Shown here in pieces: positions 18,767 to 25,003 of a stretch of DNA of 64,000 nt. Position numbers and translations under genes: made by a program. Numbering within the stretch: position 1 is the stretch's first letter; every line of letters starts with the position of its first letter. Below the pieces are notes generated by a model. It ran no database searches and was not told the origin of the DNA. It saw nothing but the letters and a program-made list of their open reading frames with translations. The stretch is from Escherichia phage REP4. The DNA is taken from the sequence record OQ174503.1; one strand, given 5' to 3'.

Positions 18767-19240
18767 TTATTTGAACGATTTAACGTACTGAATAGAACCT
18801 TTACTATTCACGAAAGCGATTTTACCATTTTTATTATACATGGTAGCAGTACGCTGATAGCCATAAGTTTGCTTACCAGATTGATAACCAACTAATGCAA
18901 AATTATCTTCACCCATTTTATTCTGTTTAGCGCGAATGCGTTCATGACCATGTGCCATAAGAACCTTAGCATCACCAGTTGCAATGGATCGACGAGTTTT
19001 TTCATCTTCAACTGTATTAACAAAGTCGTCAAATGAATCAAATTTAGCATGAGATTTATTATACAGTTTTCCATCTACTGCATAATTATATCCCTGTACA
19101 TCCATCTCAACTTCTGTACCATCATCCAATACAGCAGTGATTTTCTGTCCTTTTTTAAATTTCAAAAGATCAGTAAAAGATTCAGCAATAATTTGAGAAT
19201 TAATAGTTGCTTCAGTAATAAATTCTTGATATGTTTTCAT
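18767..19240 (-). CDS. Internal-protein-like head cargo protein with capsid-targeting sequence (MKTYQEFITE|A)
   Basis: N-terminal 10-residue motif matching the T4 IP capsid-targeting sequence and gp21 cleavage context (I-x-E). Confidence 0.7.
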   Translation of the reverse strand: MKTYQEFITEATINSQIIAESFTDLLKFKKGQKITAVLDDGTEVEMDVQGYNYAVDGKLYNKSHAKFDSFDDFVNTVEDEKTRRSIATGDAKVLMAHGHERIRAKQNKMGEDNFALVGYQSGKQTYGYQRTATMYNKNGKIAFVNSKGSIQYVKSFK

Positions 19241-19256
19241 GTGTATCCTTTAATTT

Positions 19257-19574
19257 TTATTCTTTAGGGAAGTTTTTAGAATATGCATCATAAAGCTTAT
19301 TTCCAATACGGCGGAAAACTCTAGCCGCAAAACGATTTTCTGGGTTTTTAATCATGATTTGCATCATATAAGTACCCGCGTCAGAAAGAGCTTCTTCATA
19401 GTACCCGTTAATTTCTTTAAGAGTCCTACGTTTACCACCAGGACCATCAACAGTGATTTTCCATTTACCTGTAGAAGTGCGACTTGGCGGCTCAACTTGT
19501 TCAATCCAGATATAACCGCCTTCTACACGTTGTCCTTGGGCAGATTCTGCAATAAATTCTTTAAACGTTTTCAT
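19257..19574 (-). CDS. Internal-protein-like head cargo protein with capsid-targeting sequence (MKTFKEFIAE|S)
   Basis: 105-aa ORF; capsid-targeting motif; own early-type promoter upstream. Confidence 0.7.
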   Translation of the reverse strand: MKTFKEFIAESAQGQRVEGGYIWIEQVEPPSRTSTGKWKITVDGPGGKRRTLKEINGYYEEALSDAGTYMMQIMIKNPENRFAARVFRRIGNKLYDAYSKNFPKE

Positions 19575-19610
19575 ATGGTTCCTTTAAATATTTTAATTAG
19601 TAACTATGAA

Positions 19611-19641
19611 TATACTATCACAGTTCTAGGAGAAAGTAAAC
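19611..19641 (-). promoter_or_regulatory. Early-type promoter upstream of IP-like gene
   Basis: GTTTAC at 19641..19636 and TGATAGTAT -10 region. Confidence 0.45.
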
Positions 19642-19645
19642 AACT

Positions 19646-20140
19646 TTATAAATTTTTATACGCGTCCCACGTACCAGTTCTAAACGTGGCAATGACTCGT
19701 TTTGCGCGATTAGGTGTTTGATTATACCATCGACTTTTAGCTAAGTTAACTGCTGCTTCATCCCAGCGTTTTTGTTGGAGCATACGTAAAGAATTAGTAA
19801 ATCCTGCTACGCCGGTTTCTCCCATTTGGAAAACCATGTTAATCAATGCACAACGACGAACAGCATCAAGAGAATCATAAACCGGTTTTAATTTAGCATT
19901 TCTCAGAATTCCGCGAACAGCAGCATCAACATCCTGATTAAAGAGTTTTTCAGCCTCATCTTTTGTAATTACACCATTGCAATTACGCCCAATAGCTTTA
20001 TCTAATTCAGATTTAGCAACACTAAGTGATGGACTTTTAGTAAGCAAATGTCCAATGCCAATAGTGTAATAGCCTTCTGTGTCTTTATAGATTTTAAGTC
20101 TAAGACCTTCATCTATACGTAACATTTCAAATATATTCAT
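19646..20140 (-). CDS. e: Endolysin (T4 lysozyme, muramidase)
   Basis: 164-aa protein [33 protein letters not shown]...; catalytic Glu11/Asp20 context; a few substitutions relative to T4 as recalled. Confidence 0.97.
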
Positions 20141-20153
20141 AATACCTCCTAAG

Positions 20154-20174
20154 TATTTATAGAAGGTATTTATA
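20154..20174 (-). promoter_or_regulatory. Two tandem late promoters (TATAAATA) upstream of lysozyme gene e
   Basis: Plus-strand TATTTATA at 20154-20161 and 20167-20174. Confidence 0.6.
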
Positions 20175-20177
20175 AAA

Positions 20178-20633
20178 TTAAAAGAGGTTGTTCATTATTC
20201 GGTAAAGTGAAGGACCCATCACATATTGCCACTGAGTACGAGGAATAAGAGCAAAAGCGTCCATCTCTGGAATCATAACGCCATCTTTATTTTCAAAATA
20301 AGACTCGCAATGGCAATTTCTGAACATCTCATGCTCTACTGGAATCGTATAATAAAACAACTGTAAGTCTTTATTACTAGAATATTTAAATACACCTAGG
20401 TCTTCTAGAAGGTCTGGATTATAATTACTAAAGCCAGTCTCTTCTAAACATTCTCTTTTTGCAGCTTCCAGTGCATTCAAATCAGAACTTTCTACACGCC
20501 CCTTTGGAATATCCCAACAATGTGCCATCATTCCAGGCTTACGAGAACCAGTAACTCGTCCCATAAATAAATCTTTATCTTCTGTCATAAAGATAATACC
20601 AGCTGATAATGTTTTCATTTTAATTTCCTGCAT
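20178..20633 (-). CDS. nudE: Nudix hydrolase
   Basis: Nudix box [24 protein letters not shown]; possible alternative start at second ATG overlapping the upstream stop (ATGA). Confidence 0.85.
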
Positions 20634-23091: not shown

Positions 23092-23268
23092 TTATACTCC
23101 GGATAGTTTGTAAACTATTTCAACATCGCCTTTTGCTGCTTTATAACCTTCAGCCCAAGATACAACCGAGTTTTTATCTGAAGATTCAAATTCTGGCATT
23201 GGACTTTCATCAATGTTCACACAGTATGTTTCTTCATTTTCGTCAAACCAAATAGTTAAAGTAGTCAT
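23092..23268 (-). CDS. Small acidic hypothetical protein (58 aa) missed by ORF track
   Basis: ATG at 23268..23266 preceded by GGAGAAATAA; translation MTTLTIWFDENEETYCVNIDESPMPEFESSDKNSVVSWAEGYKAAKGDVEIVYKLSGV. Confidence 0.4.
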   Translation of the reverse strand: MTTLTIWFDENEETYCVNIDESPMPEFESSDKNSVVSWAEGYKAAKGDVEIVYKLSGV

Positions 23269-23336
23269 TTATTTCTCCGCTTCTGTGATTGTTTTGATAA
23301 GTCTATAATAACACCGTCCTTGGTGTTTGTACACAC

Positions 23337-23600
23337 TTATTTCATATTATTGAAATATTCTTCTGCGATTTCATCGTTATCGTGGTAAACTTTAGAAGAC
23401 AGTTTAACATAACCTTCAGCAGTGAACATATTAATCACAACTTTTACAGTATACCACTGACCGTCTTCATTACCCATTACTGCGTAAGTTTCAAACATCG
23501 GATGGTCAGGACCGATGACTTTAATATCATTCACTGTACGACCGAAATCTTCTGAAACGCATTTCATAAAGAAGTTGAACAGTTCGCCGTAATTATCCAT
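23337..23600 (-). CDS. Hypothetical protein (start at internal Met MDNYGELF...)
   Basis: Track ORF 23337..23654 overlaps promoter; internal ATG has GGAG RBS. Confidence 0.5.
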   Translation of the reverse strand: MDNYGELFNFFMKCVSEDFGRTVNDIKVIGPDHPMFETYAVMGNEDGQWYTVKVVINMFTAEGYVKLSSKVYHDNDEIAEEYFNNMK

Positions 23601-23644
23601 TTCATTCTCCAAGTTGTTTTTCTGTATCAGTAGTTGATAGTTGT

Positions 23645-23674
23645 ATAGTACCACGGAAGAACAGGGATGTAAAC
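23645..23674 (-). promoter_or_regulatory. T4 early-type promoter with conserved leader
   Basis: GTTTAC at 23674..23669, TGGTACTAT, ACAACTATCAACTACTG. Confidence 0.55.
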
Positions 23675-23840
23675 AATTTTGTGAAAAAATTTTTAAAAAG
23701 TTTTAGGGAATTCTAGGGAAGGGAGGGGCAATTAAAGGATAGGATAATATATTATAAAGGGTAGAAACTAAATGATGCCTAGAGAGGTCCAGAAAGGCCT
23801 AGATATCAAAAAGCCCTATCATTTAGATAGGGATTTAAAA

Positions 23841-24404
23841 TTATTTACCTAGTTTAGTTATTATAGCTTCTGCGGCAGCTTTTAGTTTAGATGCGGTGTT
23901 AATACGATTTTTAATTTCAGTATACGCATCGCCAAGAACGTCAAGGCTATCAGAATAAACGCTTACACTATTGCGTTCGCTATTTGAAATAGAACCTTTA
24001 GTTTTACGATCAAAATCAATGTACACGTCTTGAAGATCATGGGCTGCCTTCTTTGCATCATCCAATGCATCAAGAGCTTTATTCAAAGCATTAACGTATT
24101 TTTTAGTGTCGAACATATTCTTAGAAATTTTAACAGGCGCACGTTCAGGAGTAGCTAAGGCAGATTTAGGAACCTGAGCGCCAGATGCCAGTTTCTTAGA
24201 AATTTTGAAAAATGCTTTATTGAATTTATTTTCTTGACTCATCGTAAAAGAACTATTATCGATGTTATACATTTCAATAGCTTTAGCTTTCCACTTAAGA
24301 AAATCGCCACGGTCTTTTGGGTCCAATTGGAAGAATACTTTAGTAAGTTCTGCTTCAGATGGTAATTTTGCTGCTTCGGTTAAAAATTCGGCATAAGTTT
24401 TCAT
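23841..24404 (-). CDS. Internal-protein-like head cargo protein with capsid-targeting sequence (MKTYAEFLTE|A)
   Basis: 187-aa ORF with capsid-targeting motif; terminator hairpin of the upstream gene lies just before it. Confidence 0.65.
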   Translation of the reverse strand: MKTYAEFLTEAAKLPSEAELTKVFFQLDPKDRGDFLKWKAKAIEMYNIDNSSFTMSQENKFNKAFFKISKKLASGAQVPKSALATPERAPVKISKNMFDTKKYVNALNKALDALDDAKKAAHDLQDVYIDFDRKTKGSISNSERNSVSVYSDSLDVLGDAYTEIKNRINTASKLKAAAEAIITKLGK

Positions 24405-24494
24405 TTAAAATCCTTGAAATAATCTATCGGTTGGTTATTAATTATTTATTACTTTGTTATTATCCGTAACAGCGTTATCCGAGTGATTCAAACT

Positions 24495-24522
24495 AAAAAG
24501 CCCCAACCTTTCGGTCGGGGCT
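24495..24522 (-). terminator. Intrinsic terminator after IP-like gene 24530..25003
   Basis: 10-bp stem AGCCCCGACC/GGUUGGGGCU, GAAA loop, UUUUU; identical copy at 25054-25081. Confidence 0.75.
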
Positions 24523-24529
24523 AAGAATG

Positions 24530-25003
24530 TTATTTGATTTGTTTAGCAGACCAAATGCGGTCTTTGATGATTTTTTGGAGATCTTCAACATACTCTAGGT
24601 CATGAGCATGTGGATTATCTTTGAAACTATAGGCACGGGCTAATTTTTGGCCTTCGGTTTTAATTACTAAAAGCTCTTTAAGGATAGCTTCATATTTAGC
24701 GATAATTCCTTTAACAATATTTTTTTCTTGTGCAGCTTTAGGATCTGCTTTAGGAGCAGGTTTACCCGAAGCCTTTGCAAAAGCAGCACCAGTAGCAACT
24801 AAACTTTTCCAGGCCATACTAACCGCATTTCCTGTAAATCCTTCTGCTTTCATGTCGCGAGCAAACTGGAATCGTGATTCGTCAGAAGCATCTTTATAGG
24901 AATATTTACCCGCTGCAATGGCTGCTTTTGCGACAGCTTGAATTTCGGTGCTAGATGCTTCATTTAACACCGCTTCATTTAAAAATTGAGCATATGATTT
25001 CAT
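24530..25003 (-). CDS. Internal-protein-like head cargo protein with capsid-targeting sequence (MKSYAQFLNE|A), Ala/Lys-rich
   Basis: 157-aa ORF; late-promoter motif (TATAAATA on minus strand) at 25044-25051; intrinsic terminator downstream. Confidence 0.65.
   Translation of the reverse strand: MKSYAQFLNEAVLNEASSTEIQAVAKAAIAAGKYSYKDASDESRFQFARDMKAEGFTGNAVSMAWKSLVATGAAFAKASGKPAPKADPKAAQEKNIVKGIIAKYEAILKELLVIKTEGQKLARAYSFKDNPHAHDLEYVEDLQKIIKDRIWSAKQIK

Follow-up and report, generated by a model that had tools for sequence, protein, structure and literature searches.

Five genes with predicted capsid-targeting propeptides in the T4-like Escherichia phage REP4, two of them unnamed and located at the rnaC terminator

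The stretch analysed here, referred to as the window, comprises 64,000 nucleotides (nt) of the genome of Escherichia phage REP4 (OQ174503.1), and the subject is a set of five open reading frames (ORFs) within it, all on the minus strand, that start with MK[TS][YF]x[EQ]F, a capsid-targeting sequence (CTS) of the kind found on the T4-type internal proteins (Ips) (Table 1). The window is from a Tequatrovirus, i.e. a T4-like phage: the 11-kb stretch around the five ORFs has 99.4% identity to Escherichia phage vB_EcoM_G50 (G50) and is matched by >1,100 T4-like phage records, and the gene order of T4 is kept (vs.8, two small ORFs, e, nudE, e.2-e.8, small RNAs, tRNA cluster, trna.2-4, ipI, 57B, 57A, gene 1). 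Three of the ORFs correspond to named Ips, IpIV and Ip10 in the first of the two recognised ip loci (vs.8/denV-e) and IpI in the second (57B-trna.4). The remaining two, called here the 157-aa and the 187-aa gene from the length of their products in amino acids (aa), lie between rnaC and e.8, outside both recognised loci, location being a habit of the family and not a requirement.

An earlier reading, made from the letters of the DNA before any database was searched (the sequence-only reading), had listed these five ORFs, and a six-frame scan of the window for MK[TS][YF]x[EQ]F returned exactly the same five and no other. The motif gave zero matches in 200 mononucleotide shuffles of the window, and looser patterns, scanned over the window, brought up no extra candidate ORF. 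In all five the motif begins at the first Met of the ORF, 0–16 codons past the upstream stop, with an AGGA-type ribosome-binding site 5–9 nt upstream of the ATG. Codon 3 changes synonymously (ACA/ACG/ACT), so the N-terminal conservation acts on the peptide. In each protein an [LIV]-x-E with Ala or Ser behind it occupies residues 8–11 or, in the IpI homolog, 17–20, which is the Glu-Ala/Ser junction of gp21 type that the sequence-only reading had described. The LTE/A junction of the window gp23 (the slash marks the cleavage site) is identical to that of the 187-aa protein. Position 4 is aromatic and position 7 is Phe in all five ORFs; mutagenesis of the IPIII propeptide, as summarised in PMC9026906, found these two positions important for targeting and positions 8 and 10 for processing, and Y/F4, F7, I/L8 and E10 are all kept in the four propeptides of the 10-residue type, including both unnamed ones. 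The predicted mature proteins (8–20 kDa, pI 9.0–9.6) are indistinguishable in size and pI from T4 IPI, IPII and IPIII (pI 9.0–9.65). Apart from the propeptide, an MKT[YF]xEF type followed by [I/L]-x-E and then A or S, the likeness to T4-type Ips extends to small, basic mature parts that are mutually unrelated in sequence, to non-essentiality and to variability between close relatives.

Table 1 Features of the window related to the five CTS-bearing genes. In peptide sequences a slash marks the predicted gp21 cleavage site.
Feature	Position	Strand	Details
IpIV-type gene	18767..19240	-	157 aa; MKTYQEFITE/A, context ITE/A; mature ~16.5 kDa, pI 9.1
Ip10-type gene	19257..19574	-	105 aa; MKTFKEFIAE/S, context IAE/S; mature ~10.9 kDa, pI 9.6; phrog_3966
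Terminator-like hairpin closing the second cassette	23814..23832	-	CCCTATCTAAATGATAGGG + T-run; T4-like sequence resumes directly after
187-aa gene, unnamed CTS gene, candidate internal protein	23841..24404	-	187 aa; MKTYAEFLTE/AA, context LTE/A; mature ~19.6 kDa, pI 9.5; phrog_2280, function unknown
Candidate late-promoter box	24443..24450	-	AATAAATA, 7/8 match to TATAAATA; 39 nt upstream of the start codon of the 187-aa gene
Second copy of the rnaC terminator hairpin, between the cassettes	24499..24522	-	AGCCCCGACCGAAAGGTTGGGGCT; exact 24-nt repeat
157-aa gene, unnamed CTS gene, candidate internal protein	24530..25003	-	157 aa; MKSYAQFLNE/AVLNE/ASS, context LNE/A, second LNE/A at residue 15; mature ~16 kDa, pI 9.4; phrog_2280
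Canonical T4 late promoter box	25044..25051	-	TATAAATA; starts 48 nt upstream of the start codon of the 157-aa gene, directly after the hairpin
rnaC-homolog terminator hairpin, first repeat copy, cassette insertion point	25058..25081	-	AGCCCCGACCGAAAGGTTGGGGCT
rnaD + rnaC homologs (T4 small stable RNAs, species 1 and 2)	25053..25397	-	near-identical to T4 71053-70908 + flanks
ipI	27837..28124	-	95 aa; context ITE/A, cleavage after residue 19 giving 76-aa IPI*
gp21 prohead serine protease, expected to remove the propeptides	57125..57763	+	PF03420 Peptidase_S77, E 1.5e-111
gp22 scaffold gene, adjacent to gp21	57794-58603		PF25623 T4_CASP
gp23 capsid gene, adjacent	58622-60187		carries FLTE/AEIG

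Of the named members, IpI differs from T4 IPI by one residue and matches Pfam PF11634 (IPI_T4; E 2e-53, 178.7 bits against a cut-off of 25) over residues 20–95, and its junction is the site where T4 IPI is cut to the 76-residue IPI*. It is that protein, and the functional model for the other four, which are similar to it only in the propeptide and have no PF11634 match. IPI* blocks the type IV restriction enzyme GmrSD of E. coli CT596 (PMC12373910). IpIV matches phrog_3155 (‘internal virion protein’, E 1e-101) and Pfam DUF7412, and the same 157-aa gene is annotated as ipIV in PST, PP01 and T2; Ip10 is annotated as ‘Ip10 internal head protein’ in PP01, VR20 and VR25, and as ‘hypothetical’ in G50. 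Together these two stand where T4 has denV, ipII and ipIII. Both were considered as close homologs of T4 IPII/IPIII, a candidate relationship that was rejected because the alignments are essentially confined to the propeptide.

A T4-early-type promoter (GTTTAC...GATAGTATATT) lies upstream of Ip10, the same one as upstream of T4 ipIII. Only 16 nt separate the stop of Ip10 from the start of IpIV, and because of this short distance IpIV has neither a promoter nor a terminator of its own. The classical ip genes of T4 and T2, like ipI and Ip10 of the window, are behind early-type promoters containing stem-loops, and IpIV, Ip10 and IpI are served by early-type promoters as in T4; late expression of these would need read-through from the gene e late promoters at 20161/20174. 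ipI is flanked on both sides (27789-27817 and 28155-28183, minus strand) by near-identical early-promoter segments (TTCACAAAGTTGTTTACA...GTGATACTATTA) containing stem-loops, resembling the classical arrangement of promoter-early stem-loop (PeSL) cassettes, and the same flanks are found around ip5 and ip7 in T2. The earlier statement that every one of the five genes has its own promoter or terminator is correct in part: IpIV has neither, and the 187-aa gene has only a 7/8 late box.

In PMC12373910 (citing Repoila et al. 1994), at least 10 Ips, recognised by their signal sequence, are reported from T-even phages. Expansion and polymorphism of the Ip family in these phages are long established, and three of the five genes of the window already have names. 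The core of the sequence-only reading, a set of CTS-bearing, otherwise dissimilar small proteins with a putative gp21-type cleavage site, more numerous than in T4 and including two that T4 lacks, agrees with all the sequence-level tests made; the reading as a whole is partly supported, the expansion as such not being new. The interval given for the family by the sequence-only reading, 18767-25003, does contain four CTS genes and also spans the unrelated genes e, nudE and e.2-e.8.

The two unnamed genes are widespread. The 187-aa gene is carried by 164 phage records and the 157-aa gene by 511, and the product is ‘hypothetical’ in all among the matches listed; the PP01 annotators named other Ips, yet left the 157-aa gene hypothetical. 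Comeau et al. (Virology, 2007) are said to describe ‘a series of novel internal proteins’ in T4-like phages, which could cover these two. Literature searches with the propeptide strings and the Ip names found no description of either protein, and an earlier mention, in Repoila 1994 or Comeau 2007, is possible.

Relatives of the 157-aa protein are found in Mosigvirus, in Klebsiella- and Yersinia-infecting T4-like phages and in a few metagenomic sequences, and the family is small and phage-restricted, since it accounts for only 13 clusters among 1.8 billion representatives. Homologs down to ~20–40% identity keep an N-terminal x-x-x-[YF]-x-x-F-L-x-E (e.g. MKFKEFLAE/AS, MLKFNEFLAE/G, MINFSDFLNE/GA and MKSFSSFLNE/GA), the remainder having diverged. 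E/[AQ]S is the junction conserved across close homologs of the 157-aa protein, which suggests that the mature form begins at Ala16. The 187-aa family is narrow (at least 89% identity in the protein search), and structure search adds RB69 ORF149c and a more remote homolog in Yersinia phage fHe-Yen9-01. In PP01 (L005, 6038-6601) the 157-aa gene is annotated from an upstream start, giving 564 bp; this start lies upstream of the late-promoter box, inside the hairpin region, and the ATG with the AGGA ribosome-binding site, i.e. the CTS start, is the better call. An IMG/VR contig (L008, IMGVR_UViG_3300030021_000002, 12374-13058) has this hairpin and TATAAATA as well, followed by a variant gene that starts MYTVNEFLAETEIITEA, in which a Pro/Lys-rich linker is very long and the C-terminal part is homologous to the 157-aa family (E 3e-10); a frameshift splits it into two overlapping ORFs, possibly an assembly error or a pseudogene.

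AlphaFold (AF2) models, made from shallow alignments (pLDDT 75.5 for the 157-aa and 64.4 for the 187-aa protein), predict the same layout for both: the propeptide forms a low-confidence N-terminal helix, followed by a small domain of three helices and, beyond a disordered linker rich in Pro, Ala and Lys, a long hairpin of two helices. The CT01 homolog of the 187-aa protein (L016, 2001-2489) has an in-frame 25-residue deletion that coincides exactly with the predicted disordered Pro/Ala-rich linker. Both unnamed proteins match phrog_2280 over their full length. When they are compared with each other, BLASTP aligns the propeptide alone, hhalign puts the match between the mature parts of both families at a probability of <1%, and Foldseek with the model of one does not retrieve the other family (E 1.9). 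Linked only by the shared PHROG and the predicted architecture, the two may be distant relatives; they are possibly, not demonstrably, related. The sequence-only reading had called the five ORFs unrelated, which the common PHROG makes uncertain for this pair. It had also proposed structure prediction and hidden Markov model searches of the mature parts; these yielded the helical two-domain models and no informative match in PDB, BFVD, Pfam or NCBIfam, Foldseek against PDB and BFVD finding generic helical hairpins or close homologs only, and phmmer against PDB sequences, together with Pfam and NCBIfam, nothing usable.

The site occupied by the two genes is defined by comparison with T4, where tRNA-Arg, rnaD and rnaC are followed by the hairpin AGCCCCGACCGAAAGGTTGGGGCT and a T-run, then GGTATCTA..., the e.8 promoter and e.8. 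In the window rnaC is followed by the hairpin, TATAAATA, the 157-aa gene, the second hairpin copy, the 7/8 box, the 187-aa gene, a different hairpin and then T4 sequence, so that the flanking anchors, 77 nt apart in T4 and PST, are 1323 nt apart here with both genes inside. The site is empty in T4 by alignment, in agreement with the earlier statement that these two ORFs have no obvious T4 counterpart. The 24-nt hairpin occurs in two copies in the window against zero expected, and no Rfam family is matched by the rnaC/rnaD region. Hairpin followed by TATAAATA is also the arrangement in PP01, Kelasse, G50 and a Klebsiella phage, the last having at the same place tRNAs, an RNA-like segment, the hairpin, AGTATAAATA, a gene, a hairpin and an early promoter. 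The box upstream of the 187-aa gene is shared, as [A/G]ATAAATA, by G50, Kelasse and CT01. A 42-nt direct repeat with 76% identity covers the ribosome-binding site and propeptide segment of both genes, which makes recombination at the gene starts plausible.

Four states of the site are seen among relatives. It is empty in T4, T2, T6 and PST; the 157-aa gene alone, between two hairpins, is present in PP01, fD1 and a Mosigvirus; the 187-aa gene alone, directly behind the rnaC hairpin and with the 157-aa cassette missing, is present in Shigella phage CT01; and the window, G50 and Kelasse have both. The junctions of the empty, single and double states fall inside the hairpin and T-run, and recombination between the first and second hairpins would produce the state seen in CT01. 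The two genes are hairpin-bounded cassettes at a third site, inserted exactly at the rnaC terminator hairpin, and this, taken together with their packaging as internal proteins (below), is considered probable. In the mechanism proposed, the cassettes would be gained and lost independently through recombination between the repeated hairpins, resembling modular shuffling of PeSL type.

PeSL cassettes, known from T4-like phages (Arbiol et al. 2010, PMC2839356, and Comeau et al. 2014, PMC4122927), offer the closest comparison. Shared are single accessory ORFs bounded by repeated stem-loops of GGGG...CCCC type that double as terminators, presence or absence between close relatives explained by recombination of the flanking repeats, and insertion in an intergenic hyperplastic region. 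At the rnaC site, a repeat-flanked ORF with mapped polymorphism is found and a sigma-70-like early promoter within the repeat is not; the promoter is late (TATAAATA), and the repeated element is a hairpin that terminates a stable RNA gene (rnaC). A scan of IMG/VR for the hairpin followed by a late promoter returned four contigs, too few for a census of cassette types.

The unnamed genes also differ in several ways from the T4-type Ips they resemble. Their site, the rnaC terminator upstream of e.8, is empty in T4, T2 and T6, and the accessible literature counts ‘two Ip loci’; the 157-aa gene has a dedicated late promoter, where T4 ipI, ipII and ipIII have an early-promoter/stem-loop context; and the family reaches Mosigvirus and the Klebsiella and Yersinia T4-like phages, with propeptides that have Leu8 and, in one, Ser3 and Gln6.

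If the five behave as T4 Ips do, the N-terminal propeptide of 10–19 residues (the CTS) would tether each protein to the gp22 core of the scaffold while the prohead assembles, gp21 would then cut it off after [L/I]-x-Glu, and the mature protein would stay in the head and be injected with the DNA, expression of the 157-aa gene being driven by its own late promoter. Both the protease (PF03420) and the scaffold (PF25623) are encoded in the same window. IpI, IpIV and Ip10 are very likely packaged, processed and injected, and the same is probably true of the two unnamed proteins; that all five are T4-type internal proteins, two of them in cassettes at the rnaC site, is likewise probable. Virion mass spectrometry of phage fD1 (PMC8309999 supplement) flagged as particle-associated g140, a 157-aa protein 96.8% identical to the product of the 157-aa gene, and also g129, whose assignment as IpIV is based on its length (157 aa), the neighbouring vs.8 and the label ‘head protein’, not on sequence comparison.

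Several points weigh against this interpretation. The fD1 preparation also held 137/277 phage proteins and 672 host proteins; with half of the phage proteins and hundreds of host proteins present, ‘particle-associated’ has low specificity, and the data show expression and co-purification of g140, not specific encapsidation. Processing, packaging and injection of the window proteins are inferred. The unnamed propeptides deviate slightly from the canonical sequence (Leu8 in both, Ser3 and Gln6 in that of the 157-aa protein), and the 187-aa gene lacks a canonical late promoter, having the 7/8 box only. The mature unnamed parts show no detectable similarity to Ip1, Ip2, Ip3 or any solved or annotated structure, and the Lys/Pro/Ala-rich linker predicted in the models would also fit a DNA-binding role.

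The deviations in the propeptides, together with the 42-nt direct repeat of ribosome-binding site and first codons and with annotations that, among the matches listed, never call the two proteins Ips, could also mean that their CTS-like N-termini are recombination relics or a shared translation-initiation region, on proteins with a cytoplasmic role late in infection. This is very unlikely, as the changes in the motif are synonymous and its conservation is that of the peptide, as it is still present where the mature parts of homologs have fallen to 20–40% identity and keeps all four experimentally critical positions, and as an annotated internal protein of Kelasse has a propeptide (MKTYSEFLSESILNEA) equally divergent from the canonical one. 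A 10-residue CTS is moreover sufficient for packaging of foreign proteins, according to PMC9026906, and a near-identical homolog was detected in fD1 virions.

For function after entry, the nearest guide is that Ip1, Ip2 and Ip3 are inhibitors, each of a different GmrSD enzyme, and that the authors expect likewise for other Ips at ‘the two Ip loci’ (both from PMC12373910). The first of these results strengthens the anti-defence analogy, on which IpIV, Ip10 and the two unnamed proteins can be regarded, tentatively and at somewhat less than even confidence, as candidates for inhibiting additional type IV enzymes or defences of another kind. The target of the new proteins on entry would most plausibly be a particular GmrSD-type (type IV) restriction enzyme. 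Outside the propeptide the four proteins other than IpI are not homologous to Ip1, Ip2 or Ip3, and as the unnamed ones also resemble no known structure, the anti-GmrSD assignment is made by analogy alone.

That lack of sequence or fold similarity to Ip1–3 suits injected anti-defence proteins with another target, such as a different modification-dependent nuclease, BREX, retrons, toxin-antitoxin systems or abortive infection. The different locus, the late promoter in place of the early promoters with stem-loops of the classical ip genes, and the two-domain architecture predicted by the models, unlike the compact IPI*, point the same way. However, Ip1, Ip2 and Ip3 are mutually dissimilar too and yet all act on GmrSD variants, and the authors' prediction of GmrSD as target for other Ips, though limited to the two classical loci, also speaks for that enzyme (PMC12373910); a target other than GmrSD is considered unlikely.

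The main alternative to an anti-defence role is that the two unnamed proteins are packaged but act physically, in neutralising the charge of the DNA, in assembly of the core or head (as suggested for IPIII) or in DNA ejection. Both are basic (pI ~9.4-9.5), have a disordered Pro/Ala/Lys-rich linker that is very pronounced in the L008 relative, and give all-helical predicted models with no enzyme-like fold; the same site is held in several T4-like genera, a greater conservation than is typical of an arms-race gene; and reviews report lysines of IPs contacting DNA and more polyheads in IPIII mutants. Such a role fits poorly with dispensability, both genes being absent from T4, T2, T6 and PST and present singly in other phages, and with the varying presence of the genes at a cassette hotspot, the mark of accessory host-range genes; in addition, all three Ips whose function is solved are restriction inhibitors (PMC12373910). 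On balance it seems rather improbable.

A wider proposal is that the rnaC-terminator site is an unrecognised third Ip locus, holding a late-expressed two-domain phrog_2280 family that is conserved in position across T4-like genera and absent from T2, T4 and T6, and that its products are injected effectors against a host function other than the GmrSD variants of Ip1–3, or have a new role in DNA delivery; as a whole this is doubtful, and is put forward as speculation. In concept, capsid-loaded proteins co-injected to protect the incoming DNA recall DarA, DarB and Hdf of phage P1, from which the present proteins differ in having no sequence relation and a different packaging mechanism, the P1 proteins being much larger.

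Elsewhere in the window, head-assembly genes (gp20, gp67, gp68, the gp21 prohead protease, the gp22 scaffold and gp23) are encoded together with the five ORFs, and no homolog of denV, IPIII, e.7 or segB was found anywhere in the 64 kb; an ipII homolog was likewise not found anywhere in it. At 18627-19645 the order is vs.8, IpIV, Ip10, e, where T4 has vs.8, denV, ipII, ipIII, e, and the UV-repair gene denV has been lost here, as it has in PP01 and T2. The tRNA cluster (25762-26782, minus strand) has 11 genes against 8 in T4, with His, Asn, Tyr and Met present and Ile absent, and the homing endonuclease gene segB is missing from it. A 58-aa ORF (23092-23268, minus strand), ‘ORF130’ in PST and absent from T4 according to the fD1 table, is in place of T4 e.7. 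Between tRNA-Arg and the rnaD homolog, where T4 has nothing, a 116-aa ORF is inserted (25393-25743, minus strand); it corresponds to T2_136 of T2, annotated as hypothetical, and has no useful Pfam, NCBIfam or PHROG assignment. The gene that the sequence-only reading called PspA-like is e.6 (22455-23048, minus strand, 197 aa), which has no Pfam match at E <= 0.01, and the label is dropped.

As a principle, variable sets of CTS-tagged internal proteins are known already, and the present case would be no surprise to a T4 specialist. What appears to be undescribed in annotations and the accessible literature is, first, two widespread ‘hypothetical’ proteins with a functional-looking CTS and, second, a third, hairpin-bounded cassette site with a late promoter that is lacking in T2, T4 and T6. 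Proteins packaged in the head act ahead of all phage gene expression, which makes them directly relevant to host range and to selecting phages for therapy. No inhibitor is known for many GmrSD variants, and the two proteins add candidates to the question of which injected proteins defeat which restriction systems: being present in hundreds of Tequatrovirus isolates, therapy candidates included, yet missing from T2, T4 and T6, they are ready-made candidate injected inhibitors. The hairpin-bounded site itself is a natural, tolerated insertion point with a late promoter, and could serve in the engineering of T4-like phages for protein delivery.

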